Both the position numbers and the translations under genes were made by a program. From positions 1-64,000 of the IMG/VR virus record IMGVR_UViG_3300046820_001050: a stretch of 64,000 nucleotides of DNA. One strand, given 5' to 3'. Under the pieces are notes generated by a model. It was given only the letters and a program-made list of their open reading frames with translations. It ran no database searches and was not told the origin of the DNA. The first letter of the stretch is position 1. Each line of letters begins with the position of its first letter. Below are positions 3,489-55,942 of the stretch, piece by piece. Origin of the DNA: a virus.

Positions 3489-3659
3489 ATGACACTCCAC
3501 GGATACACTTACCAAATTGGTGACCTATTTACAACAAGCAAGACAGGCATTACAGGTCGTATTGCAGGTTTTGCCCCAATGTCTAATAAGGTTACCAGAG
3601 TTAGTCTTGTTTTGGCAAATGGCTCTCGTCGCCTTGCTATGGTCAAGACCTCTAAATAA
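3489..3659 (+). CDS. 56-aa SH3-like small protein (not in ORF track), paralog of next gene
   Basis: YQIGDLFTTSKTGITGRI aligns with YKVGDTYTTQKSKVTGVI; SD AAAGGAAG. Confidence 0.75.
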   Translation: MTLHGYTYQIGDLFTTSKTGITGRIAGFAPMSNKVTRVSLVLANGSRRLAMVKTSK

Positions 3660-3757
3660 TCTCATAATTTGAGATTTATCCCCTACGATTTGTAAAATGT
3701 CAGTAGGAAATGTTATACTTAATACATAAGCAACCAACTAATAGAAAAGGAAATAAA

Positions 3758-3925
3758 ATGTCAGTAGCAACAGCAACATACAAGGTAGGCGATACCTACA
3801 CAACTCAGAAGTCAAAGGTAACAGGCGTTATCACAGAAATCACACCTAACGCAAATGGTCAATCAGTTCGTGTTAAGTTAGATGTAAATGGACAGGCTCG
3901 TTACACAACTTGGACGGCTAAGTAA
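3758..3925 (+). CDS. 55-aa SH3-like small protein
   Basis: SD AAAGGA before ATG 3758; promoter 3698-3719. Confidence 0.75.
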   Translation: MSVATATYKVGDTYTTQKSKVTGVITEITPNANGQSVRVKLDVNGQARYTTWTAK

Positions 3926-3936
3926 TTTAATTACTA

Positions 3937-3963
3937 ATTCCTGAGCAAGAATACAAACTGCTC
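3937..3963 (+). ncRNA. pseudoknot motif, copy 2
   Basis: ATTC-CT-GAGCA-A-GAAT-ACAAAC-TGCTC. Confidence 0.75.
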
Positions 3964-3998
3964 AAACCAACCCCCTAACAGTAAAGGAACAGACCCAC

Positions 3999-4421
3999 AT
4001 GGCAAGAGGAAAAGCAATCTCAGTAAAAATCGCAACACCAAAGGTAATCAAGGCTCTCGAAGGCGCACTCGCAAAGTTAGAACTTGACTACACATCACAA
4101 GAAGCAAACGAAGCAAAGTATGAGAAGGCAAGACAGAAGTGGCAGAAGGAACTTAGTGACTATGCCGTTGCCAACATCAAGAAGGCAGAAAACTTCCGCA
4201 CATCTTATCGCTCATGGAACAATACACTAAACATTGACTATGACTTAACAGTTGCAGAGAAGGATTTGCCTAAAGAGCCTCAGCGTGACTTTGTTGTTAT
4301 GCACCAGCATACATACAATGACCAAAAAGAGGAAATGCTTAACGCAATTCGTATTCTCAAGATGACAGATGAGGAAACAGTCAATACCAGCACTTACAAT
4401 GCGGTTGCTCGTTATCTCTAA
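3999..4421 (+). CDS. conserved actinophage-type hypothetical protein
   Basis: 140-aa ORF, SD AAGGA, strongly biased codon usage. Confidence 0.8.
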   Translation: MARGKAISVKIATPKVIKALEGALAKLELDYTSQEANEAKYEKARQKWQKELSDYAVANIKKAENFRTSYRSWNNTLNIDYDLTVAEKDLPKEPQRDFVVMHQHTYNDQKEEMLNAIRILKMTDEETVNTSTYNAVARYL

Positions 4422-4433
4422 TTAGATAGTAAA

Positions 4434-4460
4434 CGACCTGAGTATGTCGCTAAACTGCTC
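4434..4460 (+). ncRNA. pseudoknot motif, copy 3
   Basis: CGAC-CT-GAGTA-T-GTCG-CTAAAC-TGCTC. Confidence 0.75.
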
Positions 4461-4520
4461 ACAATTTGTCAGCGGTACATAGTACAATTAAATTAAACCA
4501 ACTAACAGAAAGAGGCCCCC

Positions 4521-4940
4521 ATGGACCAGGTAACAAAAGTAGACAATCACTACATGACACGAGAGTTTTTAGAAACTCAGTTAGTAGAAAACAAAAGTCG
4601 TATTGAACAATTAGAAAAGCACATTCAAACGGTAACCCAACGCTCATATGGCGAGGCTGCAGAACGTTCACGTATGCGTAATGAAATGCAAGAGTGGACC
4701 TTAGAAAACTTAAGCGACGGCACCCTTTCAGAAGGTACTGCAGAAGAGATTGCAAACATTTGTGGATTTGAGTTAACACAAGAATTTGAATTAGAAGTTA
4801 CAGTTCAATATTCAATTACAGTCAATGCACGTAATGAAGAAGAAGCACAGAATTTAATTCATGATATTGATTTTGATTCTGTATCAGAGCCACAAGGCGT
4901 AACATACCTGTCATCCAGCGTGGACCGTATAGATATTTAG
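4521..4940 (+). CDS. acidic coiled-coil hypothetical protein
   Basis: ORF with AGAGG SD, behind promoter 4467-4488. Confidence 0.75.
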   Translation: MDQVTKVDNHYMTREFLETQLVENKSRIEQLEKHIQTVTQRSYGEAAERSRMRNEMQEWTLENLSDGTLSEGTAEEIANICGFELTQEFELEVTVQYSITVNARNEEEAQNLIHDIDFDSVSEPQGVTYLSSSVDRIDI

Positions 4941-4954
4941 TAGGGGGCTACTAA

Positions 4955-4982
4955 TAAACCTGAGCATGTTTAAAAACTGCTC
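4955..4982 (+). ncRNA. pseudoknot motif, copy 4
   Basis: TAAAC-CT-GAGCA-T-GTTTA-AAAAC-TGCTC, preceded by hairpin TTAGTAG-GGGG-CTACTAA. Confidence 0.75.
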
Positions 4983-5158
4983 CTCATTGCCCAAAAATTT
5001 CCTAGGTGGCCTGTGGATAACTTTGTCAAGTCGACACGCTGAAATGTATGGTCATAGTTTACGATCTGTCCGTTTTGTCCCCGTATAACTATCCTGATTT
5101 GCATTTGTCAGCCCGTCCTGTTATACTTAAATAATCAACAACAAAAAGGAGAAAACTC

Positions 5159-10130: not shown

Positions 10131-10730
10131 ATGGACTATTTCATAGAAAGCCCTGACTACTCTATAGTCACAATTCCAAGGGTTGGCTCTAACTATCTTC
10201 AAGATAGAATCTTCCAACACACTGGTATATTTGTACAAAAATATCACAAAGTTCAAGATAACAAAATGATAACGGTAGTGAGAGACCCTATTGAACTACT
10301 TACATCAGAGTTGGCTATGGGTGTTTTCTATGATCCTGAAGGCAAGAAGATAAATGATAAACAAAAAAAACTCTGGGATGTGGAACTTCAAAGAGACTAT
10401 ATGAAGTATCTTTCAGACTCAGATGACATGGCAGTAATTGATGATTTCCACACAGTTATAGACTATAGAACCCTAATAGACTTTCCATATGAAACCACTC
10501 AGGCTATAGCCTCAATAATGGGTATTGAGATAATCCAAAGGGATTACACAAACACAAGACTTAGGGATTATTCAGAGTATAACCATATCCTATCAAGTAA
10601 AAAAGTCAAGGAGTATGATGAAATTAAGGCTCACCTACAAACTATGGATCTATCAAGAATGTATGAGTTCTATCATGAAATGCTTAAAAGATGTATAGAC
10701 ATTCCTGGCACAACTAGCCAGGGTATATAA
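10131..10730 (+). CDS. sulfotransferase-like P-loop protein
   Basis: TIPRVGSNYL (5'-PSB-like) and VRDP (3'-PB-like); leaderless start. Confidence 0.55.
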   Translation: MDYFIESPDYSIVTIPRVGSNYLQDRIFQHTGIFVQKYHKVQDNKMITVVRDPIELLTSELAMGVFYDPEGKKINDKQKKLWDVELQRDYMKYLSDSDDMAVIDDFHTVIDYRTLIDFPYETTQAIASIMGIEIIQRDYTNTRLRDYSEYNHILSSKKVKEYDEIKAHLQTMDLSRMYEFYHEMLKRCIDIPGTTSQGI

Positions 10731-10733
10731 AGA

Positions 10734-11054
10734 TTACGACACATCCTTTATAGCCTTATTGACCATACGGATCAAGGCCCTACGGGTTATCTTTGAAGCA
10801 TCAAAGGTCTCTGTGTATCCGTTTTGAGGCATATCCGCCTTATTCAGAAAATGTCCATGTCTTTCCCTTAGTGTTTTTAGTACTATAGATTCGACCTGTC
10901 TTGCCATATCCCGTTCGAAAAAATGCCAATACTTGACGAGTATCCATCCCTTGGTCCTATGGCTTGCAAACCTTCTTCCTGATATATCTGATATCCCTAC
11001 CTTGACAGCCTTATGTAGTGGGCTATATAGTATATATAAGACTGTTGATTCCAT
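10734..11054 (-). CDS. GIY-YIG / T5orf172-like nuclease
   Basis: LYIL...VKVGIS...RR...H...E...GYTETF; leaderless ATG at 11054. Confidence 0.65.
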   Translation of the reverse strand: MESTVLYILYSPLHKAVKVGISDISGRRFASHRTKGWILVKYWHFFERDMARQVESIVLKTLRERHGHFLNKADMPQNGYTETFDASKITRRALIRMVNKAIKDVS

Positions 11055-11118
11055 AGGATCATTATACTTGACATACCCTGCCAAATATGGGATACTTAAA
11101 GTATGAAAGAAGATAATA

Positions 11119-11460
11119 ATGCCTAACAAAAAAAATAAAAAGATAGACTGGTCAAATCCAGATAGAAAGATAGATTGGACAAACGCTATAGCCAAGGCTG
11201 AGCGTCAATTGGGTAGGAATAAGGCTGCTATTGAATCATCTGTCATGGGTACCCCATCAAACTGGTCAAGACCTAACTATAACAAACCTATGGTTGCTCC
11301 AGATCAATCCCCTCCAGATGAGAAGGTTAAGAAGCCTAAGAAACTAAGTAAGAAACAACGCAGAGCACACAATAAGGTCTTTGTCCCTCAACAAAAGCAA
11401 AAGGCTAAGAGGTCTACGGAAAACCAGGGTTTGCCAATAGTGAAGAAAGTTAACCAATAG
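11119..11460 (+). CDS. basic disordered hypothetical protein
   Basis: Lys-rich ORF with KIDW repeat. Confidence 0.5.
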   Translation: MPNKKNKKIDWSNPDRKIDWTNAIAKAERQLGRNKAAIESSVMGTPSNWSRPNYNKPMVAPDQSPPDEKVKKPKKLSKKQRRAHNKVFVPQQKQKAKRSTENQGLPIVKKVNQ

Positions 11461-11554: not shown

Positions 11555-12154
11555 ATGGACTATAAAATAAATGGAATAGGTGTTGGCAGGGATCCAAATA
11601 GCATAGAAAGAAAAGACTCGTACAGTGTCAATTTTGAAAAAATAGGAAACTCTAAAGATAACATCAAAGTGTTTAACAACTTCATATCAGATGATATTTG
11701 TGATGAACTTTTATCAGTCAAAGGGCTTCCACACAAGAATGAATCAGAATTTTGGTCCAATAGAGTATTTGCTAACAGACATATCAATGTGATTGCTGAT
11801 ACATTTAGAGAAAAAATAAGACTTATCATTGAAAAAGAATATAAAGTTGATATTTCACCTATAGCACCTGCTCAATCACAAATTAATCCAGCAATAATCT
11901 CATGGCATCCAGGAATCGATATGGGCTTACATGTTGATGACTTGGGCACTGAAGATTATCATATGGCAGCACTTATATATCTTAATGATAATTTTATTGG
12001 TGGGGAAATTTCTTTTCCAACGCATGGTATAGAAATTAAGCCTAAAAGTGGAGATCTTATTATATTCCCTGGAAATTTGAACTATGCACATAAGATAGAT
12101 CCTATTATTTCTGGTAACAGATATACCATGCCATTTTGGTTTAAGTACGAATAA
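11555..12154 (+). CDS. 2OG-Fe(II) oxygenase (prolyl-4-hydroxylase-like)
   Basis: LHVDD...YLNDNFIGGE...YAH...RY. Confidence 0.9.
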   Translation: MDYKINGIGVGRDPNSIERKDSYSVNFEKIGNSKDNIKVFNNFISDDICDELLSVKGLPHKNESEFWSNRVFANRHINVIADTFREKIRLIIEKEYKVDISPIAPAQSQINPAIISWHPGIDMGLHVDDLGTEDYHMAALIYLNDNFIGGEISFPTHGIEIKPKSGDLIIFPGNLNYAHKIDPIISGNRYTMPFWFKYE

Positions 12155-12186
12155 TTGACAAAGATATCATATGATATACTTGGTCT

Positions 12187-12834
12187 ATGATAGAAAATAA
12201 CAAAGAGTTTACTGGCGCAGTCGATGGAGTCTATGTAGTCAGAAATGCAGTTGTTGGAAATCGCCCAGACATGATACCAAGAGAAAAAAGTTATTTAGAT
12301 TTTTTGAATAAAGTTGGCGACTCTACGGAAAACATTAAAATAATTCCTAACTTTATAGGTGAAGAAGAAATTAAAGACCTTATGTCTCAGGTAGAAGTAA
12401 CAAAGGTAACAAGTTTTGTTTCTCAGAAAGATGCTAATGGTGAGCCAATAAACTGGATGCATACATATATGGGCATACATGATAGATTTAGCATAATCGA
12501 CAGAGTAACAAAAGAAATCAAAGATGCATACGGTTTTGATAACATAAGAGCAAAAGAACCACATCTTCATGTTGTACGATGGGACGAAGGTTCTGCACTA
12601 AAACTTCATGTAGATGACCTTGGGTACGTTACAGATAATAATATAGCAACACTAATCTATCTTAATGATGACTATGAAGGTGGAGAGATTTCTTTTGAAC
12701 AGCACAATCTTTCGGTTAAGCCCAAGACTGGTACACTACTTATATTTCCTGGAAATTTAAACTATGCACATGAAGTTAAAGAAGTTTTGTCTGGCAAAAG
12801 ATATACAGCACCTATCTGGTTTACGATAGTTTAA
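12187..12834 (+). CDS. 2OG-Fe(II) oxygenase (prolyl-4-hydroxylase-like)
   Basis: LHVDD...YLNDDYEGGE...YAHEV...RY. Confidence 0.9.
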   Translation: MIENNKEFTGAVDGVYVVRNAVVGNRPDMIPREKSYLDFLNKVGDSTENIKIIPNFIGEEEIKDLMSQVEVTKVTSFVSQKDANGEPINWMHTYMGIHDRFSIIDRVTKEIKDAYGFDNIRAKEPHLHVVRWDEGSALKLHVDDLGYVTDNNIATLIYLNDDYEGGEISFEQHNLSVKPKTGTLLIFPGNLNYAHEVKEVLSGKRYTAPIWFTIV

Positions 12835-12872
12835 GGTATAATTTAATAGTGACAACCAACTTAGAGGGAAAT

Positions 12873-13115
12873 ATGAACAAAAGAAAACTTTTAGATGGAT
12901 CTGAAGTTAATGATTACGATTATCCAATTGATTTAATACTACACACAAAGGCACCTGGCAAATGGAAGTTGATCGATCTTGAAACTGGACAAGAGTATCT
13001 TGGATCAGAAATATCTCATGATACATTCGCTGAACTTTTAAGAAGCAAAGTTTCCTACTCTAAGATAGGATCTTGGTTTAAAACTAAAGGAAGAGTAAAT
13101 AATAATGCAAAATAA
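12873..13115 (+). CDS. hypothetical protein
   Basis: GAGGG SD; TKAPGKWKLIDLETGQEY phage pattern. Confidence 0.7.
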   Translation: MNKRKLLDGSEVNDYDYPIDLILHTKAPGKWKLIDLETGQEYLGSEISHDTFAELLRSKVSYSKIGSWFKTKGRVNNNAK

Positions 13116-14547
13116 TAACAGACCAATAACCTTTCACTGGATGTGGAGAAGACACTGGCAAATAACTGACAGCATTGAGCACTTGGACCTTAACGGCATT
13201 ATGCAAATGGCAAAAGAGTTGGATGGGGCAGGAGTAAAGTCTGTTTTGCTTCCATATGGTCCAGGAGGTATTGATTTTTCATTAGTCATAAAGGAAGCAT
13301 TAGAAGAAACAAATAAACTAATAATGACAATTGCATTGCCAGCATATGGAACAAGTCCTGACTATGCTGCTAAGATTCTTGAAACTTTAAATAGATTTGC
13401 TCCTGGAAGAATTGGTGTAAACCTTGTCGCTGGAAGATGGGGTGATGAAGGAAATGGTCCTTCAGAAAAGTTAGTATTAGATCACTACATGCATGACTCA
13501 TCACTTATTGATACCCTTGAAAAAAGAGTAGGAGTATCTTCAGTTTGGATGGATAATGTTATGGACCTAATGAAAACCCATCAGCATAAAACACACATGG
13601 CTGTTGTTGGTTCTTCAGATACTACAATTGAAATAGCAAACAAGCATTGCGAATATATCTATGTAGATGATAATTTAGTTTATAGGGAACAGTTTAAGAA
13701 GATTGATCTTAGTCGTGTAAAGCCAATACTTATTATTGACCCACTTATTATTAATCATCCAGATGAAGAAAAAAATGCTACATACGATAAAAATGCAGCA
13801 CCAAGAAAACAACATCATCACGTAAAGGGTACAATAGCAGATGTTACTAGACAAATAAGAGAACTGTCAAATAAATTTGGCATATATGACTTTATGATAC
13901 ACACTGATCAAGAAGATATTAGCAAGTTACTAAAATTAGTAAAAGATTTTAACAATGTAGAACTGCCTCAGCAAAATCAGCAAAACTTTAAGAATGTTGT
14001 TACCTCTGAACTAACAAAGGAAAACTTTACTAACATTGGAAACCGTCCTGATAACATAAAGGTGTTTAACAACTATCTTAGTAAAGAAGAGTGTGCCAGC
14101 ATAATAGAACTAATTAACAAAACAGATACAAGCAACAACAGGTTATTGCAGTCAGACTCTTCTGGAAACCCAATCCTGTCCTTGTTGTACTACGATTCCC
14201 TTGATCTTTCTGAAAGATATATCCCTCAGATTAAGTCTTTCGTAGAACAAGAATACAACGTAAATCTTAAGCCAAGAAATTCTCGCTTTGCCCAATGGCA
14301 GCACATCGATAGCCATACAATACCAATAGATGACCTAGGACATAAGGACTCAAACCATTTGGCTGGCTGGGTATACTTAAACGATGACTATGAGGGTGGA
14401 GAACTATCCTTTATGCATCAGGATATATCGTTTAAGCCTAAGACTGGTGATTTGGTAATGTTCCCTGGGAATATTCACTACTGGTACAATGTAGGACCAA
14501 CAAATGGTTCAAGGTACATAATGCCTATCTGGTTTGATTTTATTTAA
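13105..14547 (+). CDS. luciferase-like (LLM) flavin monooxygenase fused to a degenerate 2OG-Fe(II) oxygenase domain
   Basis: N-terminal SsuD-like features (SPDYAAK..ETLNRFAPGRIGVNLVAG; VVGSS.TT..IA.KH.E); C-terminal YLNDDYEGGE domain lacking both metal-binding His. Confidence 0.75.
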   Translation: MQNNNRPITFHWMWRRHWQITDSIEHLDLNGIMQMAKELDGAGVKSVLLPYGPGGIDFSLVIKEALEETNKLIMTIALPAYGTSPDYAAKILETLNRFAPGRIGVNLVAGRWGDEGNGPSEKLVLDHYMHDSSLIDTLEKRVGVSSVWMDNVMDLMKTHQHKTHMAVVGSSDTTIEIANKHCEYIYVDDNLVYREQFKKIDLSRVKPILIIDPLIINHPDEEKNATYDKNAAPRKQHHHVKGTIADVTRQIRELSNKFGIYDFMIHTDQEDISKLLKLVKDFNNVELPQQNQQNFKNVVTSELTKENFTNIGNRPDNIKVFNNYLSKEECASIIELINKTDTSNNRLLQSDSSGNPILSLLYYDSLDLSERYIPQIKSFVEQEYNVNLKPRNSRFAQWQHIDSHTIPIDDLGHKDSNHLAGWVYLNDDYEGGELSFMHQDISFKPKTGDLVMFPGNIHYWYNVGPTNGSRYIMPIWFDFI

Positions 14548-14731: not shown

Positions 14732-15016
14732 ATGGAACAATGGATGAATGACTATGCCTCATGGGTGCTTGTCATAAGTGGCGCAGCAGCCATGTTTACG
14801 ATTGGTCGTAAGAAGCGATGGGGTTGGCTTTGGTTTATATTTAATGAGTTTATGTGGACTGCCTACGCATTAATCACAAAACAATATGGATTTATTCTTG
14901 GTGCTATTCTATACGGAATAGTGGGAGTAAGGTCATACATGAGATGGAAAGATATATCATTAGACAAACACTCATGGAACAAGTTCCTTCGTTTAGTCTG
15001 GTCAAGCAATGATTAA
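14732..15016 (+). CDS. small PnuC-like membrane protein
   Basis: three hydrophobic segments, GRKKRWGWL...YA..TKQYGFI. Confidence 0.6.
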   Translation: MEQWMNDYASWVLVISGAAAMFTIGRKKRWGWLWFIFNEFMWTAYALITKQYGFILGAILYGIVGVRSYMRWKDISLDKHSWNKFLRLVWSSND

Positions 15017-17273: not shown

Positions 17274-18287
17274 ATGACTGATTTAACCAGAGATATTTTA
17301 AAATTTTACAAATACAATGAAAAAAATAGTTGGTACCTAACAAAATTTTTTTCAGAAACAAAAAATATTGGATACTATTCTCCATACCAAGAAGTAGGTA
17401 TCACTGGAACAAAAGAAGAAAATCAAAAGTACGCTGCAACTATAGATGAAGATAATACATATAAAATTAATGGTCTTGGTTTTCGTGGAAAAATTAATGA
17501 AGGTGCAGATGCACTTGGAGTTGGTTGCTCCATAACCTTTGGTCTTGGTGTTCCAGAATCAGGAAGATGGACAGACATATTAGCAAACAATCTTGGTAAA
17601 AGTGTTAACAATTTAGGAAGCCCTGGAGCCTCTGTAGCAACTATTTGCAAAAACATTATTCAATACTGCTTGATAAACGGAATGCCAAAAGAAATTTTTT
17701 GTTTGATGCCAGACTTTTTTAGAAGAATGGTAGTAGTAGACAAGGAATTTTACACATCTAAAAAAGGTACAGACAGAAATAGCCCTGGTAAAGGCGATCA
17801 CTTAGAGTTATTTTTTTGCAATCCAAGAGTTGCAAAATATGAAGACTCTATATTTATGGAAATAGAAGATAAAAAATATATAGAAGATTCAATTTCTCCA
17901 CATCAATTAATTTTAGATTCAGTAGAGTATCTCTATATTTTAGAATCCTTTTGTTTAACAAATGGAATAAAACTATACTGGACAACTTGGGATCGACCAA
18001 GTTCTTTAATCATGAACGAATTATCAAAAATTAAAGATTTTAAACTAAAAAGGTATACTAATCTTTTTTCAGAAACAACCGCATATGGCTATGACCCTTC
18101 ATTTAACAATACTTGCAACTCAGACCACAACTCTGAGTTTAAGGATAGTTCATGGTGGAGTCTTGGATCAGATTATTCAATTATAGATTATAAAAAAACA
18201 AATAAATATTCTCATCCAGGAATTCACTTTCATTATCACGTTTCAGATCTTTTCTATGAGTTACATAAAAAAGATTCAAACAACTAA
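17274..18287 (+). CDS. SGNH-hydrolase-like phage protein
   Basis: N.LGFRG...GCSITFG.G...W...NLGSPGAS...HPG; leaderless. Confidence 0.7.
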   Translation: MTDLTRDILKFYKYNEKNSWYLTKFFSETKNIGYYSPYQEVGITGTKEENQKYAATIDEDNTYKINGLGFRGKINEGADALGVGCSITFGLGVPESGRWTDILANNLGKSVNNLGSPGASVATICKNIIQYCLINGMPKEIFCLMPDFFRRMVVVDKEFYTSKKGTDRNSPGKGDHLELFFCNPRVAKYEDSIFMEIEDKKYIEDSISPHQLILDSVEYLYILESFCLTNGIKLYWTTWDRPSSLIMNELSKIKDFKLKRYTNLFSETTAYGYDPSFNNTCNSDHNSEFKDSSWWSLGSDYSIIDYKKTNKYSHPGIHFHYHVSDLFYELHKKDSNN

Positions 18288-23395: not shown

Positions 23396-23959
23396 CTACT
23401 TATTCAATTTTTTATATTCATTTATATTTAGACGAATAGGCGAGCCATTAAAATTAAACCACAGGGTAGAAGAGTATCTTTCTTTGCCAATATTTTCAAG
23501 CACTTCATGCGGGTAGTCCTCATTGCTAGGGAATGTGACAAAACTGTTAGCCTTTGGCTTAATTTTTAAATTATGATTTGGAAAATTTATTTCTCCCCCC
23601 TCATAGTCATCGTTAATATAGTATATTACTGCAAAGTCTCCAGTGGTATCGGTGTGTTCATTCATTTTATGTCCTTTTTCAAATTTAATTAGATGAACTT
23701 CATTTCTTTCAAAAACACGAAGTTTTGCATCATAAATTTCTGTGCACTTGTCATAAGCAATTCTGAAAACTTTTTCTAATGAATCAACAATTTCTTTTGG
23801 CATTTCTTTTGATAGAAAGAACTTGACTCCCCATGGCTGAACCTGCCAGGAGTCAATAGCCTTTGCATAATCAAGCAGTTGTCTGTGTTCTGCTTCAGAC
23901 AAAACATTTTCTGTGAGTTGTATATTATTTGCAGAGTTTTCTAAATTTGATTTTATCAT
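23396..23959 (-). CDS. 2OG-Fe(II) oxygenase
   Basis: EHTD...YINDDYEGGE...YPHEV...RY. Confidence 0.9.
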   Translation of the reverse strand: MIKSNLENSANNIQLTENVLSEAEHRQLLDYAKAIDSWQVQPWGVKFFLSKEMPKEIVDSLEKVFRIAYDKCTEIYDAKLRVFERNEVHLIKFEKGHKMNEHTDTTGDFAVIYYINDDYEGGEINFPNHNLKIKPKANSFVTFPSNEDYPHEVLENIGKERYSSTLWFNFNGSPIRLNINEYKKLNK

Positions 23960-23962
23960 ATT

Positions 23963-24565
23963 TCAAGTATACCATTGTTTCTTTTTGTTAAAAGTGGATC
24001 CAGTAAACTGAAACCATAGAGATGAACTATATCTTTCTCCCTCTAAAATTCTAAATACTTCATGTGTATAGTTTTCATTTCCAGGAAAAATAATCAGACT
24101 GTTAGGCTTTGGCTTAATTTGAATATTGTGATCTATTAAACTTATTTCTCCACCTTCGTACTCATCATTGATGTAATAAATTGATGCAATATGCAGCGAT
24201 TCATTTGAGTTAACGTCTGCGTGTGGATGCAAAACAAAATCTTTTTCAAATTTAATTAAGTTAAATCTGTCCTTTGAAAAAATGTCAATTGGCACGTTAT
24301 AGACATCTTTGGCTTTTTCGTAAGCAATCGTAAATACCTCTTCTAATGAATCAATAACTTTGTCAGACATCTGGTCTAGCCCAATAGTCTTAGCATCCCA
24401 TGGCTGCAGCACCCAGAACTTACGACGAGTTACAAAATCAAGTATCTCATTGTGCTTATCTTTGTCCAAAACATTTTCTATATATATTACGTTTTCTGCG
24501 GAGTTTCCTATTTTAGCAACATTTGCTAAATAGATTTCATCTTTTTCAGAATAATCTTCACTCAT
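23963..24565 (-). CDS. 2OG-Fe(II) oxygenase
   Basis: PHAD...YINDEYEGGE...YTHEV...RY. Confidence 0.9.
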   Translation of the reverse strand: MSEDYSEKDEIYLANVAKIGNSAENVIYIENVLDKDKHNEILDFVTRRKFWVLQPWDAKTIGLDQMSDKVIDSLEEVFTIAYEKAKDVYNVPIDIFSKDRFNLIKFEKDFVLHPHADVNSNESLHIASIYYINDEYEGGEISLIDHNIQIKPKPNSLIIFPGNENYTHEVFRILEGERYSSSLWFQFTGSTFNKKKQWYT

Positions 24566-25181
24566 AGTTCATCCTTTGACGAGTTGTTGTTGGTCCTAAA
24601 AATGTAGATCCAGTAAAAACAAACCTTGCGCCAAAAGTATATCTAAATCCTTCTAAAACTTCAAGTACTCCGTGAACGTAGTTTTCATTACCAGGAAACA
24701 TAACTAAACTATTTGACTTGGGTTTAATTTTTAAATCATAATCTGGAAAAAATATTTCTCCTCCTTCATAATTATCGTTAATATAATACATACACACAAT
24801 ATGTTGGTGTTTTTGAGCATCTGTGTCTATATGCGGCTTCATATTGCTGCCCTTGCGCCACTTAGTCAAAAAATATTGACCCATCAAATCACTATCCACT
24901 TCTATGTCATAATAACTAATACAGTCGAGTCTAGCAGTTTTAAATATTTTTTTTAAAATTTCAACAGAATCCTCTGGCATTGCTTCAACAGGAATTCTTT
25001 CGGTAGTCCATGGCTCTTGAATCCAAGGAATATGATCTGAATTATTTACAAAATTAGATAATGTTTGATATTCTTTATCTGGTAAAAAATTATCTATAAC
25101 ATATATGTTTTTTGCAGAACTTCCTAATTTAGCGACATTTGCTAAATAGATATCATCTTTTTCAGAGTCGTGTTCCATCAT
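24558..25181 (-). CDS. 2OG-Fe(II) oxygenase
   Basis: PHID...YINDNYEGGE...YVHGV...RY. Confidence 0.9.
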   Translation of the reverse strand: MMEHDSEKDDIYLANVAKLGSSAKNIYVIDNFLPDKEYQTLSNFVNNSDHIPWIQEPWTTERIPVEAMPEDSVEILKKIFKTARLDCISYYDIEVDSDLMGQYFLTKWRKGSNMKPHIDTDAQKHQHIVCMYYINDNYEGGEIFFPDYDLKIKPKSNSLVMFPGNENYVHGVLEVLEGFRYTFGARFVFTGSTFLGPTTTRQRMNYE

Positions 25182-27454: not shown

Positions 27455-27681
27455 AAGCGAATCCTCCATGTCATCCTTGTAGGACCCTGATCAATTAATT
27501 GAAACATGTGATGCTCGTACTGATCTTTTAGTTCTTTATAGATTTCTGGACTTACTTCTTTCATTTTGTCTGTAATCATATACATCATTTCACCAGTGAT
27601 ATCATCAATACCCTGAAATTCTACAGCACCTTGAAGCATCAAATGCTCAAGCATTGCCTGACTTTTTAGGTCATGACTCAT
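27451..27681 (-). CDS. hypothetical protein, paralog of downstream gene
   Basis: same shared motif; ATGA overlap. Confidence 0.7.
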   Translation of the reverse strand: MSHDLKSQAMLEHLMLQGAVEFQGIDDITGEMMYMITDKMKEVSPEIYKELKDQYEHHMFQLIDQGPTRMTWRIRL

Positions 27682-28319
27682 TTTACAGGCACCACCAAAA
27701 TCTTTTGCTTCTTGCAAGATTTTAGGTTTGACTCTATTGCAGACTTCTCTACCTTATCTACTGTCAAAGACCATCGAACCTTAACAGATACCCATGTTGT
27801 TAGATACTCACAGGTATATGCTTTATTGGTAGGTAGCCACTCTGCTGGATCACGATCAGATTTAGATCTATTAGATCCCCCAGTTACCGCAATTAGGTGT
27901 CGTGGATCCGTTTGGTCATTAGCATACATCTCACGCTTTTCTGCAGTCCATGATGATGCGCCTGAATCCCAGGATTCTGCAAGTGGAACAAAATGATCTA
28001 CATCCAACTTTCCTGCTTCTGTAACTACAACATTATCGTAAATACTTAGCCATTCGCCACCCTTGATTACGCAACCTTTTTCAATGGTTGGTTTCTTTAC
28101 GGCTTCGGATATAATGACTGCCTTGCGAGAGTCACATCCATTACCTGCTCCAGTCCAGTGCTTAAACTTTGTGCGTACATATCCTGTGCGTGATTCATCT
28201 GCAACCTTAAGAGTATTAAGTGCTGTGATCTGATCCCTATAAACAACTGGTCCTGCTGCTTGGGCTGTTCCCCCAATAAGTGCAACACTGATGATTGCAG
28301 ATGTTAACATTTTTTTCAT
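27678..28319 (-). CDS. secreted HNH-fold nuclease (DUF1524 family)
   Basis: signal peptide; GY.R..F.HW...DVDH.VPLAE.W.SGA..W...AND...N.SKSD.DPAEWLP. Confidence 0.88.
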   Translation of the reverse strand: MKKMLTSAIISVALIGGTAQAAGPVVYRDQITALNTLKVADESRTGYVRTKFKHWTGAGNGCDSRKAVIISEAVKKPTIEKGCVIKGGEWLSIYDNVVVTEAGKLDVDHFVPLAESWDSGASSWTAEKREMYANDQTDPRHLIAVTGGSNRSKSDRDPAEWLPTNKAYTCEYLTTWVSVKVRWSLTVDKVEKSAIESNLKSCKKQKILVVPVK

Positions 28320-28522
28320 TATTTTCTCCCCCATTGGATATAGTTCCATCCACGCTCATGTGCGTAGTATAGAATAAAGTTAATTGTATTTGTTAGTACC
28401 GTGACTTGCAGCGCCTGCACTTCTTCTCCAGTGATCCACAAAGCAGAAACAAATGTGGTTATTAGTGCAAACACTCTCCACGTTAAGGACTTAATTAGTG
28501 ATCTTGACTTAGAAACTATCAT
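28319..28522 (-). CDS. DUF2061 membrane protein
   Basis: RSLIKSLTWR...YY.HER.W..I.WG. Confidence 0.85.
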   Translation of the reverse strand: MIVSKSRSLIKSLTWRVFALITTFVSALWITGEEVQALQVTVLTNTINFILYYAHERGWNYIQWGRK

Positions 28523-28794
28523 GGCAGCAGTTCTGGCCCTGGTCCTGTTTGAATTTTTGCACGAGTACCCTGCCAATAAATCTTTCCGTCGCAGGCAATG
28601 TTCATCTTTTGATCACCATTGGCAATACTTGATTCTCCGTACACATAACCATGAATTTCAATATGGCTTGCAAGCGTTTCCTCGCCATCAACTATTACAC
28701 GCCAATGCAAATCTCCATCGCCAACCTTAGTGTTGTATCTTACTTGTATATGTTGATTTGGTTTAAAGAACCACTTCTTAAACTTATCTATCAT
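28519..28794 (-). CDS. hypothetical protein
   Basis: VRYNTK...WRV..DG.E pattern; coupled. Confidence 0.7.
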   Translation of the reverse strand: MIDKFKKWFFKPNQHIQVRYNTKVGDGDLHWRVIVDGEETLASHIEIHGYVYGESSIANGDQKMNIACDGKIYWQGTRAKIQTGPGPELLP

Positions 28795-29552
28795 ATACCC
28801 ATTTCCTTACGCTTTTGCGTAGCAGAAATAGCATGAATCTCTGCCCCCAAATCTACTTGCTCAATCTTATATCCAACATCACGACCATAAACAATGTTGG
28901 TAATGTTTGGCAGTCTTAGTACTAATGCACCATCCATAAACTCATCCTTGGCAATATATTCTTTTACCTGATCAAACTTAAGGGGATCCTTTTCGCTTGT
29001 GTTGTATGTGTTGCGTACACCAAGTAGTACCTGATCAGTTCTCTTTCCAGCCTCTTTGTAAAGGGCATGGTGGCCTTCGTGCCATGGCTGGTAACGACCA
29101 AGCATCAGGGTTGTAGGTGCAGACCAATCATGCAATCCAAACTTTTCAATTATGTGAGATGACTTTGCTTCTGCATCCAAGTTGTGACTAATAAAAGATA
29201 CATCAAAATCTGTTGGTCGTTCAAACATTTTGTTGGTATCTTCAAATCGTCCTTCCGCTAAAGTGTCCATGAATACAAGTACATCTGGCTTACCAAATGC
29301 TGCACGAGTTATTTCAGTTGGGCATACAAAATCAACTATGACGGGAGCAACGCCCTGCTTGGCAATAATTCTAGCCATGTCTCCCATACGTCTTGCCTGC
29401 TCGATTCTATCTTCAGGGCTAAAGCCTAAGTCTGAGTTTACTGTTGCACGAACCTCATCTGCATTAAGATGAATGGCATTAATCCGTTCCTTTAGTGCCT
29501 TTGCTAGTTCTGTTTTTCCAGAACCTGGCAATCCTATAATCTGAATTATCAT
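28791..29552 (-). CDS. adenylyl-sulfate kinase-like domain fused to an HxGH nucleotidyltransferase domain
   Basis: GLPGSGKT, NADEVR...DLGFS.EDR, FVCP; then LGRYQPWHEGH...ISAT. Confidence 0.8.
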   Translation of the reverse strand: MIIQIIGLPGSGKTELAKALKERINAIHLNADEVRATVNSDLGFSPEDRIEQARRMGDMARIIAKQGVAPVIVDFVCPTEITRAAFGKPDVLVFMDTLAEGRFEDTNKMFERPTDFDVSFISHNLDAEAKSSHIIEKFGLHDWSAPTTLMLGRYQPWHEGHHALYKEAGKRTDQVLLGVRNTYNTSEKDPLKFDQVKEYIAKDEFMDGALVLRLPNITNIVYGRDVGYKIEQVDLGAEIHAISATQKRKEMGI

Positions 29553-33535: not shown

Positions 33536-34969
33536 CTACCCTATAATTTTTGTATTATAGGTATCCTCCCAAGCAACAATATCTATCTCATCATTTAAAA
33601 GTGGTTGTCCTTTAATGTTTAGGCTTGTATTTAATAAAACTGGAACACCAGTTTCAAGATAAAATTTATTTAAAACCCTGTATAGTCCACGATGCTGTTC
33701 TCTATTTACAGTTTGCACTCTTGATGTTCCGTCAGCATGAACCACAGAAGGTATCTTTTCTGGCTGTAGGCATTTAACTGTATACTGCATGTAGGGGCTT
33801 GTAAAGTCCATATCAAACCACTTAGATGCACACTCCTCCATAACTACTGGAGCAAACGGTCTAAACAACTCTCTTTGTTTAATTAAATTAACTTTGTCTT
33901 TAATATTGGGATCTCTTGGATCAGCAAGAATACTTCTATTTCCCAATGCTCTTGGACCGTACTCTGCTCTACCTGCTGCTACTGCTACTATTCCATCCTT
34001 TAATATACCCTCCACAATTTGCTGAACTGGATACTCTCCACCAAGGTCATAACCAAGATATGGGGTCTTCCAGTTAAGGTGCTTTCCGTATAGTGCTGCA
34101 GCAGCCCCTAAAGAACTGCCAGCATCTCCAGGGTTTGGCATAATCCAAATCATATCAAAGATGTTCCATAGCGTCGTGTTTGCTGAAGAATTAAGAGCAC
34201 ACCCACCCATAAACACTAAGTTATTTTTGCCAGTTAAATCTTTAGCCATTTTCATAAACTCTGCAAGCCTTAGTTCATAAACATATTGTACTGCTGCCGC
34301 TATGTCAAACTTATCCTGCTCTGTGATTGGTTCATTCCAGTCAATGATGCCTTTATGAAAATTGTATTTTTGCATATCATGTCTAAGAAAGTAGTTAGAT
34401 ACTTTGGCTGAATACCTTTCTGGATTTCCATAGGCTGCCATTCCCATCATAATGTACTCTTCTTGGTTAGGCATTAAGCCTATTAATTGAGTAAATGCTG
34501 AGTAAAATAGCCCAAAAGATACTGGATAGTTTTTTTTGTACTTTAACCTTATCTTTTCACCTTCACCAACCCAAATTGTAGATGTATTAAATTCACCAAT
34601 TGCATCTAATACCACGATACAAGCATCATTAAATGCGCTTGTGTAGTATCCTGCTGCAGCATGAGAATAGTGATGACCAAAGTTTTTTCTTGGAAGATCA
34701 TCTAATTCTGTACCTTCAAACCATGGAGTACCTCCACCAAAACCACCCCTAGTCTTTACTCTAAGTTTTTTAAGCAAAGGCTTTTCATAGTATGCAATTT
34801 GGTCTGGATATCCGTACTGAAGAGCATCTTTAATAAGTTCTCTGTTTGTAAACCAGTCATTTTTTTGCTTACTATATCTTTCTGCATGCCCTGCAAAAAG
34901 TATCTCACCATTTTTTATTAGGGATACTGAAGCATCATGGGTGGTTTCATTTATACCAAGAATTATCAT
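33536..34969 (-). CDS. carbamoyltransferase (NodU/CmcH family)
   Basis: HDAS, ERYS..K, HHYSHAA, DAIGE, GGCALN, GDAGSSLGAA, EYGPRALGNRS, RPFAP, HADGTSRVQTV, NTSLN. Confidence 0.95.
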   Translation of the reverse strand: MIILGINETTHDASVSLIKNGEILFAGHAERYSKQKNDWFTNRELIKDALQYGYPDQIAYYEKPLLKKLRVKTRGGFGGGTPWFEGTELDDLPRKNFGHHYSHAAAGYYTSAFNDACIVVLDAIGEFNTSTIWVGEGEKIRLKYKKNYPVSFGLFYSAFTQLIGLMPNQEEYIMMGMAAYGNPERYSAKVSNYFLRHDMQKYNFHKGIIDWNEPITEQDKFDIAAAVQYVYELRLAEFMKMAKDLTGKNNLVFMGGCALNSSANTTLWNIFDMIWIMPNPGDAGSSLGAAAALYGKHLNWKTPYLGYDLGGEYPVQQIVEGILKDGIVAVAAGRAEYGPRALGNRSILADPRDPNIKDKVNLIKQRELFRPFAPVVMEECASKWFDMDFTSPYMQYTVKCLQPEKIPSVVHADGTSRVQTVNREQHRGLYRVLNKFYLETGVPVLLNTSLNIKGQPLLNDEIDIVAWEDTYNTKIIG

Positions 34970-35637
34970 TCTGCACCATACGACTCTCTTTTTTCATCAA
35001 ATTTTATATTATGATACCAGTTTGGTAGAGCATATCTTGGTCCTTTTGTAACTGGGTGAACCTCATGAACATATAGGAAGTTGGATGGAAAAAATAAAAT
35101 GCTGCCAGCCTTTGGTTTTATCTTAATTCCAGAGTGCTTAAACTCTATCTCTCCACCCTCATAGTCATCATTTAAATAAAGCAAAACGGAAAGCACACGA
35201 CTGCTAACCCCTTGATCTTGATGTGCTGGCAGGTATCCACTTTCCTGATACTTTAATATATGCATTTTTGATTCTCTAGATTTAATATTTTTTTCTGCAA
35301 ATGGATATAGTTCAGTAGAATAGTGGCTAAGTGTTTTTTCTAGTGCTCCAAAAAGTTGATCGGATATACTTTTTTGCTCTTCATAATAAGGATCTTTTAA
35401 GTCAATATTCTCAACTTGTGGTATAAACTTTTGCAAACAAAACATTAGTTCATTTTTACCCTTGCCAAAAGTTCTAGGGATCCAAGGCTTAACACATGTA
35501 TCTTTGTAATTTTCTGATACACACTTACTATCTAATTCTTCTATTTGCTTAATTAAAAAATCTGGATTTTCTATTACATTTGTATAGTATACCAACCCTA
35601 GGTCAAGCACCTCACAGTTAAAATCTGGCATGTCCAT
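34966..35637 (-). CDS. 2OG-Fe(II) oxygenase
   Basis: AHQD...YLNDDYEGGE...YVHEV...RY. Confidence 0.9.
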   Translation of the reverse strand: MDMPDFNCEVLDLGLVYYTNVIENPDFLIKQIEELDSKCVSENYKDTCVKPWIPRTFGKGKNELMFCLQKFIPQVENIDLKDPYYEEQKSISDQLFGALEKTLSHYSTELYPFAEKNIKSRESKMHILKYQESGYLPAHQDQGVSSRVLSVLLYLNDDYEGGEIEFKHSGIKIKPKAGSILFFPSNFLYVHEVHPVTKGPRYALPNWYHNIKFDEKRESYGAE

Positions 35638-35748
35638 GTCCCTTCTTAACTAGTAGATAAAGTTATTATCTCTAGGATTTTTTCTAATTTTTCTTTTAAT
35701 AAAATAATATCTTATAGTTCTGATTATTTTTTTCATAATTTTCTCCCA

Positions 35749-36312
35749 CTAGTTTAAATCTGGATCTATTGTAACATAGCCCTTTGGATGCTCTGTTTGA
35801 GTTGTATGCATATAAAGCAGTGTTGATCTGTGTCCACTTTCTATTGGAGATATTCCATGCCTCCACAATTCCCCATCACTTGGGAAAAATACTCCATCAT
35901 ATTTTTTTGGTTTATAAGTAAAATTAAGTGCTGGAAAATATAAATCTCCACCAGTAAAATTGTCATCAAGATATATTACAGTGCTATACTCTATAAATTC
36001 CTCTGGCGGTTGATCATCAACGTGTGCATCTCCCTGCATTCCTGTTTGCCAGACCGAACCAAATGACTTGAATGTCTTTATTTTTTTTGTTTCTTCTGGA
36101 TGCAGTCTATGGTGAACATCAATAGATAGTAAAGAATATTTTTTTTGAATAGCAAGAACAGTCTTGTTGTATGGATAGGCAGTTCCTCCGTACCTAGTGC
36201 TGTAGTATTCTGGGTATGGATTTTTTTCTGAAGGGCTTTTTATTTCACTCAATAAAATATCAGCATCTGCAGGACTAATAAAATTCTCAATTATAACTGG
36301 CTGCTTTATCAT
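35749..36312 (-). CDS. 2OG-Fe(II) oxygenase
   Basis: AHVD...YLDDNFTGGD...HGI...R. Confidence 0.85.
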   Translation of the reverse strand: MIKQPVIIENFISPADADILLSEIKSPSEKNPYPEYYSTRYGGTAYPYNKTVLAIQKKYSLLSIDVHHRLHPEETKKIKTFKSFGSVWQTGMQGDAHVDDQPPEEFIEYSTVIYLDDNFTGGDLYFPALNFTYKPKKYDGVFFPSDGELWRHGISPIESGHRSTLLYMHTTQTEHPKGYVTIDPDLN

Positions 36313-51665: not shown

Positions 51666-52676
51666 CTAGCCATTTAGTTTTGCCTTGATTGATTCTTGCA
51701 AGTCAAGATCCTCTCTTACACGATTAACGAATGCTTCTTTACCCTGGACCTTTGACCCATCAGGAAGTATGTACCAAGCACCTGTGCGCTCCACGATGCC
51801 GTTTAGTTCTGCTGTAGTAACCAGATCACCAATGGTATCAAGACCAATATTGTCACCTCTAAAGTAAAAATCATACTCACCAGACTGGAACCCTGGAGAG
51901 GTTTTGGAGAACTGGAGTTCCCACTTAATAGTTCTACCAATTTTTTCTTCAATTAATTTATCTCCTACCTTGATCTTGCCCTTAATCGCTTGATTGTCTG
52001 ACTCTGAAGAAAAGAGTTTAACAATACATGAGGAATAAAACTTAGTAGCCTGACCACCAGAAGGCTGCTGGCTAGTATACATAGCATTAATATTATTACG
52101 AGACTGAGAAATGAGAACAAGCAAAGTTGGCTTAACTTTATTGTTTGCATAGTTAAGCATTTTCCATGCGTTACTAAAGTCACGGGATTCTGCTCCAATC
52201 TGTTTTGTATTTTCTAATGCTTTCATTTCATCTGTATCTTTTTCAAAATAAATTGCTGGAAGCATTGATGTAATAGAGTCTACCACAATTAGGTCAACGC
52301 CAGCGTTCATTAATCCAACACCTACATCCACCATGTCGCTAATAGTTCTTGCTTGCGAATAGATTAGTTTTTCTGGATCTACCCCAAGAGTTCTGGCCCA
52401 GTCTTCTGAGTATGACATCTCTGAGTCAATCCACGCACACAGTTTGCCATCTGCCTGTGCAAGAGCAATCATCTGAAGGCACATAGAAGACTTTGCAGAA
52501 GACTTAGAGCCCCAGATCAGTACCTGCCTTCCATAAGGAAGACCACCACCAAGAGCACGGTTTAATCCAAAACTAGGAGTAGGTTGGTATTCATAGTTAA
52601 CACCAACCCCACTACCCAATCTCTTTCTTAACTTAGGGTCTAACTGTGCTAATGCTTCTTCGATACTAACTGACAT
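51666..52676 (-). CDS. recA: RecA-like recombinase
   Basis: ALGGGLPYGR, GSKSSAKS, WIDSE, IVVDS, ISQ.R, GAWY. Confidence 0.92.
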   Translation of the reverse strand: MSVSIEEALAQLDPKLRKRLGSGVGVNYEYQPTPSFGLNRALGGGLPYGRQVLIWGSKSSAKSSMCLQMIALAQADGKLCAWIDSEMSYSEDWARTLGVDPEKLIYSQARTISDMVDVGVGLMNAGVDLIVVDSITSMLPAIYFEKDTDEMKALENTKQIGAESRDFSNAWKMLNYANNKVKPTLLVLISQSRNNINAMYTSQQPSGGQATKFYSSCIVKLFSSESDNQAIKGKIKVGDKLIEEKIGRTIKWELQFSKTSPGFQSGEYDFYFRGDNIGLDTIGDLVTTAELNGIVERTGAWYILPDGSKVQGKEAFVNRVREDLDLQESIKAKLNG

Positions 52677-55600: not shown

Positions 55601-55941
55601 CAGGATAGTTCACTAATCTTGTTAAGGTTTTCTAAACCAATTTGATTCTTGGCTAGAAGGATAATGTGATTATAGACAAGATCTTGCTGACCTTCTCTTT
55701 CAGACTTATCTCGTGTGTCAGATATGTCTGCACACATGTATCCTTCTAGACCTAGAATTGGCTTAATGCCCTTTGCTTTTGCAATACGGTGCAGTTCCCT
55801 ATGCCCAGATAAAGTACCGTGGTCAGTGATGGCAATTGCTGGCATCCCTAACTCAACTGCACGGTCAACGTATTCTTCTGGAGTAGCAATCCCATCAAAT
55901 AAACTAAAATGGGTATGGACATGTAAGCCGACGTAGTTCAT
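52666..55941 (-). CDS. dnaE: DNA polymerase III alpha subunit
   Basis: HVHTHFS.FDG PHP domain, GRGS.AGSLV, PDIDTD, KID.LGL, YQEQVM, YSFNKSH. Confidence 0.97.
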   Translation of the reverse strand: MNYVGLHVHTHFSLFDGIATPEEYVDRAVELGMPAIAITDHGTLSGHRELHRIAKAKGIKPILGLEGYMCADISDTRDKSEREGQQDLVYNHIILLAKNQIGLENLNKISELSWTDGFFKKPRFDFTILEKYKEGIIVSSACPSSVLVKALEEEEFALAKKYLTWFKERFGDDYYVEVMPHNEAHINKYLIELADEFGIKVIVTPDCHHVDPSQKEVQEFKLLMNTHGKFVKDATYEKSKKKGSMMERLDYLYGEDRQITFNKFDIHLLSYEEIKAAMEAQGIDRPDIYSNTLLLAETVGDYGIQEGLNLLPVQYKSPDKELAKAALEGLAERGLSENQEYLDRLEEELKIIKDKKFAPYFLVVSNMINWAKKEEIMVGPGRGSSAGSLVCYALKITDIDPIEHNLLFFRFINPERNDFPDIDTDIQDTRREEVKDYLVRQYRHVASIATFLEFTGKGIVRDVARVLNIPLSDVNKVLKTVDTWDDFCTSKSTREFREKYPEVEIYGEQLRGRIRGTGIHAAGVVTAKEPIFRYAPLETRSSTGSDERIPVVGVDMEEAERIGLIKIDALGLKTLSVLKNTIDIIKERDGKKIDLLKIKMDDANVYQMLSDGYTKGVFQCEAAPYTNLLVKMGVKNLNELAASNALVRPGAMNTIGKDYVDRKHGRQNISYTHQVLKQFTEDTYGCILYQEQVMQACVHLGGMSMSEADKVRKIIGKKKDAKEFDQFKEKFVEGASKFIAPNAARDLWHDFEAHAGYSFNKSHAVAYSTLSYWTAWLKYYYPLEFMYSVLKNEKDKDARTEYLIEAKRMGISIKLPHINDSDIDFKIEGKGIRFGLSAIKFISDKIGERYISARPFSSYKELEEFTFTKGNGVNSRALQALRVIGAATFNDNPRNDQEIKENLYEYLNLPEFNITIPSHYYAFIQDIVDFEEKGSYIFMGMVKSIKRGTGWSRVEILDKTGSVGIFDDENTTIETGRSYLVLCNDNRIVSFIPSDEIKESSHALVKFLSYKQLPYKDDEMFVVSFKPRITKTGKKMASLTLADTSRDLHSITVFPTSFAKAYMHIEEGKSYKFDFGKTKDGTVTLEDVHVS

Positions 55942-55942
55942 A

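Follow-up and report, generated by a model that had tools for sequence, protein, structure and literature searches.

Luciferase-like monooxygenases (LLMs) of group C, such as SsuD, MsuD and SfnG, are two-component enzymes that depend on reduced flavin mononucleotide (FMNH2) and have the (beta/alpha)8 barrel in common as their fold. The 2-oxoglutarate (2OG)- and Fe(II)-dependent oxygenases are unrelated to them; they include the prolyl 4-hydroxylase (P4H)-like enzymes, which are built on a double-stranded beta-helix (DSBH) and have many paralogs in cyanophages. Loss of the iron site is also known from this fold, as JmjC-domain pseudo-oxygenases without iron ligands, such as JARID2, act as scaffolds. 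Here we describe a viral gene in which the two superfamilies are joined. It lies in a stretch of 64,000 nucleotides (nt), referred to as the window, that corresponds to positions 1 to 64,000 of the IMG/VR virus record IMGVR_UViG_3300046820_001050, and it encodes a protein of 480 amino acids (aa) with two domains (aa ~1-283 and ~304-480), an N-terminal LLM barrel and a C-terminal P4H-like domain in which both iron-binding histidines are replaced.

The fusion gene is the last of four plus-strand genes that lie head to tail (Table 1) and is preceded by two intact P4H-like oxygenases and by an 88-aa protein, here called s88. A search within the genome matched the C-terminal domain to the two upstream open reading frames (ORFs) at E 3.0e-31 and 1.1e-29, and a three-way alignment gave 33-39% identity, with the Y-L-N-D, G-G-E, F-P-G and R-Y..P.W core motifs of P4H-like oxygenases and their 2OG-binding Arg common to all. 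The paralogy claimed in the original prediction, which was made from the letters of the window, is thereby upheld, and so are the motifs listed in it. Furthermore, the Pfam model PF13640 (2OG-FeII_Oxy_3) matched all three proteins with scores that exceed its cut-off, in the fusion at residues 400-477 with 33.0 bits (cut-off 27), and a profile of the domain matched Bacillus anthracis P4H (PDB 5hv0/3itq) at E 4.4e-7. The fold is assigned from Pfam, profile and paralogy, the list of VIA-align matches of the model being filled by the N-terminal domain. As had also been claimed, neither iron-binding histidine is present: the first ligand motif, L-H-V-D-D-L-G in the paralogs, reads I-P-I-D-D-L-G in the fusion, and the distal motif changes from Y-A-H-[KE]-[IV] to Y-W-Y-N-V, with Pro407 and Tyr461 aligned to the histidines. 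Asp409 of the HxD motif and the 2OG-binding Arg470 are kept.

The ligand survey combined 189 homologues from a protein search with loci from IMG/VR and yielded 181 distinct sequences. Arg470, at the predicted 2OG-carboxylate site, is Arg in all 181 of them. The facial triad of P4H-like oxygenases is for the most part missing, with Pro, Ser or Ala and Tyr in place of the histidines: the canonical HxD...H occurs in two relatives, HxN...H in 18 and HxD...Y in one, and in the other 160 the first His is absent (P, S, A, R, T, Q, L or N) and the second is mostly Tyr. The refuting case named in the original prediction, homologues with the histidines retained, applies only to the HxD...H and HxN...H minority. 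Of the ligand sites, 407 varies most (P, S, A, R, T, Q, L, N or H); site 409 has D or N, and at site 461 most relatives from the window's clade have Tyr and those of the HxN...H clade have His.

Despite the loss of its ligands, the domain is under strong purifying selection. Pairwise Nei-Gojobori ratios of nonsynonymous to synonymous substitution rates (dN/dS), calculated in the window's clade for 81 sequences and then for 48 loci with all genes, were 0.10-0.13 for the His-less domain and 0.16-0.21 for the intact neighbouring oxygenase (12187-12834). The same comparison gave 0.07-0.10 for the LLM domain, 0.07-0.08 for s88 and 0.25-0.46 for the inter-domain linker, and the C-terminal domain of the sister clade had a dN/dS of 0.12. 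No frameshifts or stops were seen among the 181 relatives. Ten relatives carry the two halves as separate genes, encoding an LLM of 283-287 aa and a His-less protein of 180-184 aa that are separated by 1-2 nt in most pairs and overlap in locus L113; the stop and start codons of these split forms sit within the linker region. As it persists when the gene is split and is constrained more tightly than the paralog with intact catalytic residues, the His-less domain is not a remnant, and the view that the dead domain is kept finds support in its dN/dS, in the invariant Arg470 and in its persistence as a gene of its own. The fusion is not an assembly artefact, as the 171 distinct fused sequences recovered come from independent metagenomes. 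Insertions of ~580 nt that seemed to lie within the gene in four loci (L022, L023, L038 and L083) proved to be neighbouring 2OG paralogs that the tblastn report had run together with it. A search of viral contigs for loci related to P0122 found none.

With regard to the N-terminal ~280 aa, structure and profile comparisons bear out the LLM barrel of the original prediction. In an AlphaFold2 (AF2) model of the 480-aa protein built on 25 homologues, with a mean predicted local distance difference test score (pLDDT) of 80 and a predicted template modelling score (pTM) of 0.58, residues ~5-287 form an eight-stranded beta/alpha barrel, followed by a linker in which residues 291-300 have a pLDDT of 34. 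The best Foldseek matches of the barrel were MsuD and SsuD (E 1e-13), and VIA-align superposed it on CmoJ, nitrilotriacetate (NTA) monooxygenase, LadA, MsuD, SfnG and BdsA with Z scores of 21-23 and a root-mean-square deviation of ~3 A over 253-268 residues, the SsuD/MsuD/SfnG group reaching Z 22-23. These enzymes also gave the best sequence and profile matches, as a profile of 40 members of the ~265-aa N-domain family matched MsuD at E 1.3e-21. The window protein itself scores 18.4-19.9 bits with PF00296 (Bac_luciferase), below the gathering threshold of 27.9, and 32 of the 40 family members match this model at E <= 0.01 (best E 3e-11). When 1.84 billion representative proteins were searched exhaustively with the N-domain, 86 clusters were retrieved, nearly all of them stand-alone proteins of 250-280 aa; the fused form occurred only in the query's own cluster.

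In MsuD, flavin binding and O2 reactivity involve L46, T49, A75, R77, N104, V106, G108 and S177/S178, with L46, A75, N104, V106 and G108 making up the O2 pocket and the ribityl site (PMC8234197). A direct alignment matches these five residues with L48, A77, N106, V108 and G110 of the phage protein and places Tyr51 at T49, and in a profile alignment the G-S-S phosphate motif is kept as S170-S171. No phage-encoded flavin reductase was found when one was looked for, and the lack of an adjacent reductase is what would be expected for a two-component system. On the other hand, the phage barrel is ~100 residues shorter than SsuD, MsuD and SfnG, with the lid and sulfonate-loop region halved, and, unlike any of these enzymes, it has a DSBH domain as its fusion partner or as a separate companion. 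A similarly minimal size and fold are found in the short (~270 aa) KvPepI (PDB 9g64/9gm0; PMC12081711), an LLM that acts as an F420H2-dependent ketoreductase in the biosynthesis of pepstatin and aligns with Z 22 over ~240 residues and a Foldseek target-normalised TM score of 0.72. However, the identity with KvPepI is only 13-16%, and sequence profiles favour SsuD/SfnG over F420 families: SsuD models of NCBIfam were matched by all 40 N-domain family members, each below the cut-off, and F420 families by 7-8 of the 40. As judged from these comparisons, the N-domain is a minimal LLM, probably of the group C flavin-monooxygenase type, but no SsuD, and would be the catalytic part of the fusion.

A tree of the N-domain, comprising the 181 fusion and split sequences and rooted with stand-alone LLMs, helps to outline how the protein may have arisen. 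The LLM predates the fusion, given the stand-alone family clusters and an unfused LLM, 42% identical, in a syntenic phage contig that has neither s88 nor an adjacent His-less domain. HxD...H and HxD...Y forms lie near the base of the tree, with His-less S-x-D...Y forms branching earlier still, and the split forms nest inside the fused ones. Because some relatives keep HxD...H or HxN...H, the oxygenase domain was active when the fusion arose, and the loss of its iron site came later and is lineage-specific. The ligand states of the C-domain are not cleanly monophyletic, which suggests several independent losses or an exchange of C-domains between lineages. HxN...H, QxD...H and NxN...H, for instance, turn up within N-domain clades whose other members are PxD...Y, a pattern that suggests swapping of C-domains through recombination.

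The fusion belongs to a conserved cassette. In about 80 loci the recurrent gene order is an optional sulfotransferase, an intact oxygenase, s88, the LLM, the His-less domain, then one to four optional sulfotransferases and a 337-aa protein. The conserved oxygenase of this module is the second of the two in the window: an orthologue of 12187-12834 was found in 80 of 80 loci, always with the same offset, the tblastn matches of 11555-12154 in relatives fall on that same orthologue, and two upstream oxygenases together were found in only three architectures. The gene at 11555-12154 is an extra copy that is largely specific to the window; two intact paralogs lie beside the fusion in the window, as predicted, and in only a few of its relatives. 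Five more P4H-like 2OG-oxygenase ORFs, confirmed with Pfam, lie in two clusters at 23396-25181 and 34966-36312, both on the minus strand, which brings the ~99-kb genome to eight 2OG-oxygenase-like ORFs; a carbamoyltransferase gene (33536-34969) adjoins the second cluster.

The s88 protein is likewise found in 80 of 80 loci, with a median identity of 83%, and also in the sister clade, and its alignment contains 39 invariant columns. Its only library match was phrog_4098, a family of unknown function, and comparison with Pfam and PDB profiles gave no match. The AF2 model, with a pLDDT of 50, is too poor to be used, and the neighbours in the ESM Atlas were only unnamed viral clusters (0.76). A role as tyrosine-sulfation substrate, considered on account of a D-Y-D-Y-P motif, was rejected, as several orthologues have Phe in place of the Tyr and conservation extends over the entire protein, in the manner of a folded subunit.

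The sulfotransferase-like proteins that flank the module measure ~170-265 aa, and one to four copies lie beside it in relatives. A 5'-phosphosulfate-binding (5'-PSB)-like motif, P-R-x-G-S-x-Y-L, and a 3'-phosphate-binding (3'-PB)-like motif, R-D-P-x-D-x-x-x-S, are conserved across 13 paralogs, and the family profile matches the structures of cytosolic sulfotransferases (SULT) and of the CurM ST domain at E ~2e-6. When the Pfam models PF00685 and PF13469 were compared, seven of the 13 members matched PF00685 (Sulfotransfer_1; best E 1.3e-7), the window copy alone falling below significance. An adenosine 5'-phosphosulfate (APS)-kinase-like P-loop protein encoded further along the window could possibly supply 3'-phosphoadenosine 5'-phosphosulfate (PAPS) for the sulfotransferase, and a homologue (10601-11359) lies 3 kb from the fusion in the sister-clade locus L139. 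These APS-kinase-like proteins (PF01583, 55-62 bits) match the first ~90 profile positions only and have an extra C-terminal part of ~150 aa, which in the L139 homologue gives a weak cytidylyltransferase-like match; judging by this layout, the protein may not be a plain CysC. Its gene is adjoined by a 223-aa ORF (27678-28349, minus strand) that matches GmrSD_C, a DUF1524-type nuclease, at E 9e-12.

Table 1. Features of the fusion gene and its cassette in the window (positions counted from the first letter of the window)
Feature	Position	Strand	Remarks
PAPS-type sulfotransferase-like protein, 199 aa	10131-10730	+	Syntenic cassette member; sole such copy in the window
Intact P4H-like 2OG-Fe(II) oxygenase, 199 aa	11555-12154	+	PF13640 E 2.4e-9; H-V-D...H...R present
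Intact P4H-like 2OG-Fe(II) oxygenase, 215 aa	12187-12834	+	PF13640 E 3e-13; H-V-D...H...R present
s88, 88-aa protein	12849-13115	+	Between second paralog and fusion; overlaps start of fusion gene
Fusion gene, 480 aa	13105-14547	+	
N-terminal domain, aa 1-283	13105-13953	+	Minimal luciferase-like TIM barrel; probable catalytic part
Inter-domain linker, aa ~284-303	13954-14013	+	Variable in sequence and length; low pLDDT
C-terminal P4H-like double-stranded beta-helix, aa ~304-480	14014-14547	+	Without both iron-binding histidines
P407-I408-D409 codons	14323-14331	+	Position of HxD motif; first His replaced by Pro407
Y461 codon	14485-14487	+	Position of distal iron-binding His; Tyr replaces His
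R470 codon	14512-14514	+	2OG C5-carboxylate-binding Arg of the fold; aligned with Arg of both intact paralogs
337-aa protein	17274-18287	+	Travels with the cassette
APS-kinase-like P-loop protein	28791-29552	-	PF01583 55-57 bits (cut-off 21.1)

Further genes occur near the module. The 337-aa protein, for which Pfam gave no match, was found in 59 loci and in most of them lies 2-3 kb downstream of the fusion; in the ESM Atlas it falls among unnamed viral clusters, with Lipase_GDSL, carried by 15% of members, as the closest family that has a name, so that a GDSL/SGNH-like relationship is a weak lead. A 153-aa ORF on the minus strand (10734-11195), between the sulfotransferase and the first oxygenase, occurs in 50 loci with a median identity of 73% and has no Pfam match. 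Just downstream of the fusion, a 94-aa membrane protein (14732-15016, plus strand) shows a weak match to PnuC-like nicotinamide mononucleotide (NMN) transporters (PF04973, E 8.6e-4) and a match to phrog_2421 (E 1e-15), and is found at a variable distance in 54 related loci. Additionally, one related locus (L133, IMGVR_UViG_3300042864_001708) carries a gene for a 530-aa protein of the flavin-dependent tryptophan-halogenase family (3508-5100, plus strand; PF04820 E 8e-103) ~330 nt upstream of the oxygenase-s88-LLM module, and no such gene is present in the window's own genome.

The record from which the window was taken is 98.6 kb long, with an estimated completeness of ~90% and a G+C content of ~37%. 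A megablast search of the region against isolated phages gave no match, and in a tblastn search of isolated phages only the C-terminal ~70 residues were matched, in cyanophage oxygenases. A DnaE-like DNA polymerase III alpha subunit of 1105 aa (52666-55986, minus strand) is closest, at 54% identity, to those of ~127-kb Streptomyces phages such as BillNye and Circinus. This kinship of the polymerase and the presence of the region in freshwater metagenomes indicate that the source is a freshwater actinophage-like siphovirus, whose host, on the same sequence grounds, is likely a low-GC freshwater actinobacterium. Pieces identical to the oxygenase and fusion genes were found on contigs from three freshwater metatranscriptome studies, a weak hint that these genes are transcribed, as contigs of RNA libraries could stem from DNA carry-over. 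The fusion architecture appears to be new, though assembled from two known superfamilies; a description of an LLM joined to a His-less oxygenase was sought in the literature and none was found, with a partial coverage that leaves novelty not proven.

Taken together, the reading we favour, to which we give a probability of roughly 0.55, is that the LLM barrel is catalytic and that the former oxygenase, its carboxylate pocket retained, now serves as an iron-free accessory domain, both acting together in a tailoring cassette for hydroxylation and sulfation. The minimal barrel (~265-283 aa), a relative of SsuD, MsuD and SfnG without their lid and without part of their sulfonate-binding motif, would probably depend on reduced flavin and be paired with a reductase supplied by the host. 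The C-terminal half started as an active P4H-like 2OG/Fe(II) oxygenase paralog which, after the fusion, lost one to three iron ligands in most lineages and kept its fold, the Arg470 pocket and purifying selection. The His-less domain most likely would no longer carry out Fe/2OG oxidation and would probably be an obligate accessory of the LLM, either a module that binds a ligand or substrate or a scaffold or cap; the docking or substrate-recognition role of the original prediction is plausible within this scheme. The cassette as a whole, with its P4H-like hydroxylase, s88, the LLM/His-less pair, PAPS-type sulfotransferases and the APS-kinase-like protein, might then hydroxylate and sulfate a target. 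The sequence data show what the domains are, that the ligands have been lost, the selection, the fused and split forms and the synteny; beyond these findings we infer a lost oxygenase activity, an accessory role for the domain, the use of flavin and any pathway. A parallel for such an accessory domain is offered by pseudo-oxygenases of the JARID2 type, in which the 2OG-oxygenase fold has likewise been kept after loss of the metal ligands, alongside catalytic partners; unlike these, the phage domain is P4H-like rather than JmjC, is encoded by a phage and is fused to an unrelated flavin-type barrel.

Several observations weigh against this reading. The pTM of the AF2 model leaves the packing between the domains not established; the complex prediction of the N-domain (1-286) with the C-domain (304-480), which scored 0.00, counts neither for nor against binding. 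The flavin-contacting R77 of MsuD corresponds to Pro79 in the direct alignment, and the F420-dependent KvPepI, Mer and FGD fit the N-domain nearly as well as the flavin enzymes do (VIA-align Z 21-22), so that the use of flavin is predicted only and the cofactor could be FMN or F420. Actinobacteria, the likely host phylum, commonly use F420. Furthermore, the N-domain phylogeny and the ligand states of the C-domain are partly incongruent, which makes the number and order of the losses uncertain, and the HxN...H clade may still be active, in which case 'dead' would not apply to the whole family. Finally, His400, His418, Asp409, Asp410 and Tyr461 could form a different metal or catalytic site.

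This last point leads to a possible, if unlikely, alternative, in which the His-less domain has been neofunctionalised, either as a metal-independent enzyme, by analogy with some cupin-fold epimerases and isomerases, or with a metal site rebuilt from His400, His418, Asp409/Asp410 and Tyr459/Tyr461, and the fusion couples two active chemistries. The strong purifying selection on the domain and the invariant pocket Arg470 agree with this, as does the conservation of the proposed residues and their surroundings in the His-less clade (96% for H400 and H418, 100% for Y459, D410 and N417, and 93% for W460 and Y461). However, the intact oxygenase at 11555-12154 combines a full triad with His residues that align with 400 and 418, and because of this co-occurrence His400 and His418 look like second-shell or substrate residues rather than replacement ligands. 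Moreover, these two positions are Lys and Asn in the HxN...H clade, the first-ligand position varies freely among eight residue types, and no known metal-independent P4H-like enzyme was retrieved in the profile and Foldseek searches.

A bolder version of the accessory role, which we regard as tentative and rather doubtful, makes the fusion a new kind of composite enzyme: the former oxygenase pocket would bind the substrate by a hydroxylated or sulfated group, or act as a sensor for 2OG or succinate, and the cassette would decorate a target on the virion or the host envelope. If this were true, the pocket, which comprises Arg470 and the residues around it, would offer the substrate to the flavin site in a barrel whose own lid has been lost, and a phage pathway of hydroxylation and sulfation would be acting in abundant freshwater Actinobacteria.

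The annotation of the N-domain as an SsuD raises another alternative, namely that the gene is a viral auxiliary metabolic gene (AMG) of the ssuD type that releases sulfite from alkanesulfonates to feed the sulfur assimilation of the host, the C-domain being incidental. SsuD, MsuD and SfnG are the closest sequence relatives with known function, the Joint Genome Institute (JGI) annotation calls several homologues SsuD-like, and viral ssuD, tauD and cysC have been listed as organosulfur AMGs (bioRxiv 10.1101/2021.01.05.425418). Nevertheless, the window protein reaches 35.5 and 37.4 bits with TIGR03565 and NF001939, whose cut-offs are 518 and 510. The sulfonate-binding motif of SsuD and MsuD consists of W195, R225, R296 and A/S299 (PMC8234197); the core residue R225 aligns with Ile210 in the profile alignment, W195 falls within an insertion that the N-domain family is without, and the lid and sulfonate-loop region has about half the length of that of MsuD, with the R296 loop region shortened, although the invariant Arg234 might be the counterpart of R296. 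Given the lack of conservation at the sulfonate-binding residues and a neighbourhood of PAPS-consuming sulfotransferases and hydroxylases rather than genes of sulfur assimilation, the gene is improbable as an AMG of this kind, and the C-domain, being under strong selection, is not incidental.

Equally improbable is the pathway put forward in the original prediction, in which both intact paralogs and the fusion oxidise one substrate in three successive steps and the dead domain docks that substrate. The genes are adjacent, paralogous and on the same strand, and the dead domain is retained. However, most related cassettes lack the first paralog, and in them the conserved partners of the fusion are a single intact oxygenase, s88 and sulfotransferases, and adjacency of paralogs is common here, as the genome holds five further 2OG paralogs elsewhere. 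Decay of the His-less domain, to which the lost catalytic ligands and the variable first-ligand position could point, is effectively refuted by the selection data, with a dN/dS below that of the intact paralog and reading frames free of frameshifts and stops in 181 sequences, by its persistence as a separate ORF after gene fission and by ~50 columns that are at least 97% conserved, the signature motifs of the fold among them.

For the family, these results mean that one copy of a P4H-like oxygenase was first fused to another enzyme, then lost its iron site, and is yet more constrained than its active neighbour. With fused, split, intact and His-less states all available for comparison, it offers a natural test case for the evolution of pseudoenzymes, within the large and unexplained arrays of P4H-like 2OG oxygenases that aquatic phage genomes especially carry. 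The locus also calls for caution in annotation, as an automated SsuD-like call may count this gene as a viral AMG of sulfur assimilation. If the cassette does hydroxylate and sulfate a target, it would represent an unusual sulfation pathway of widespread freshwater phages.

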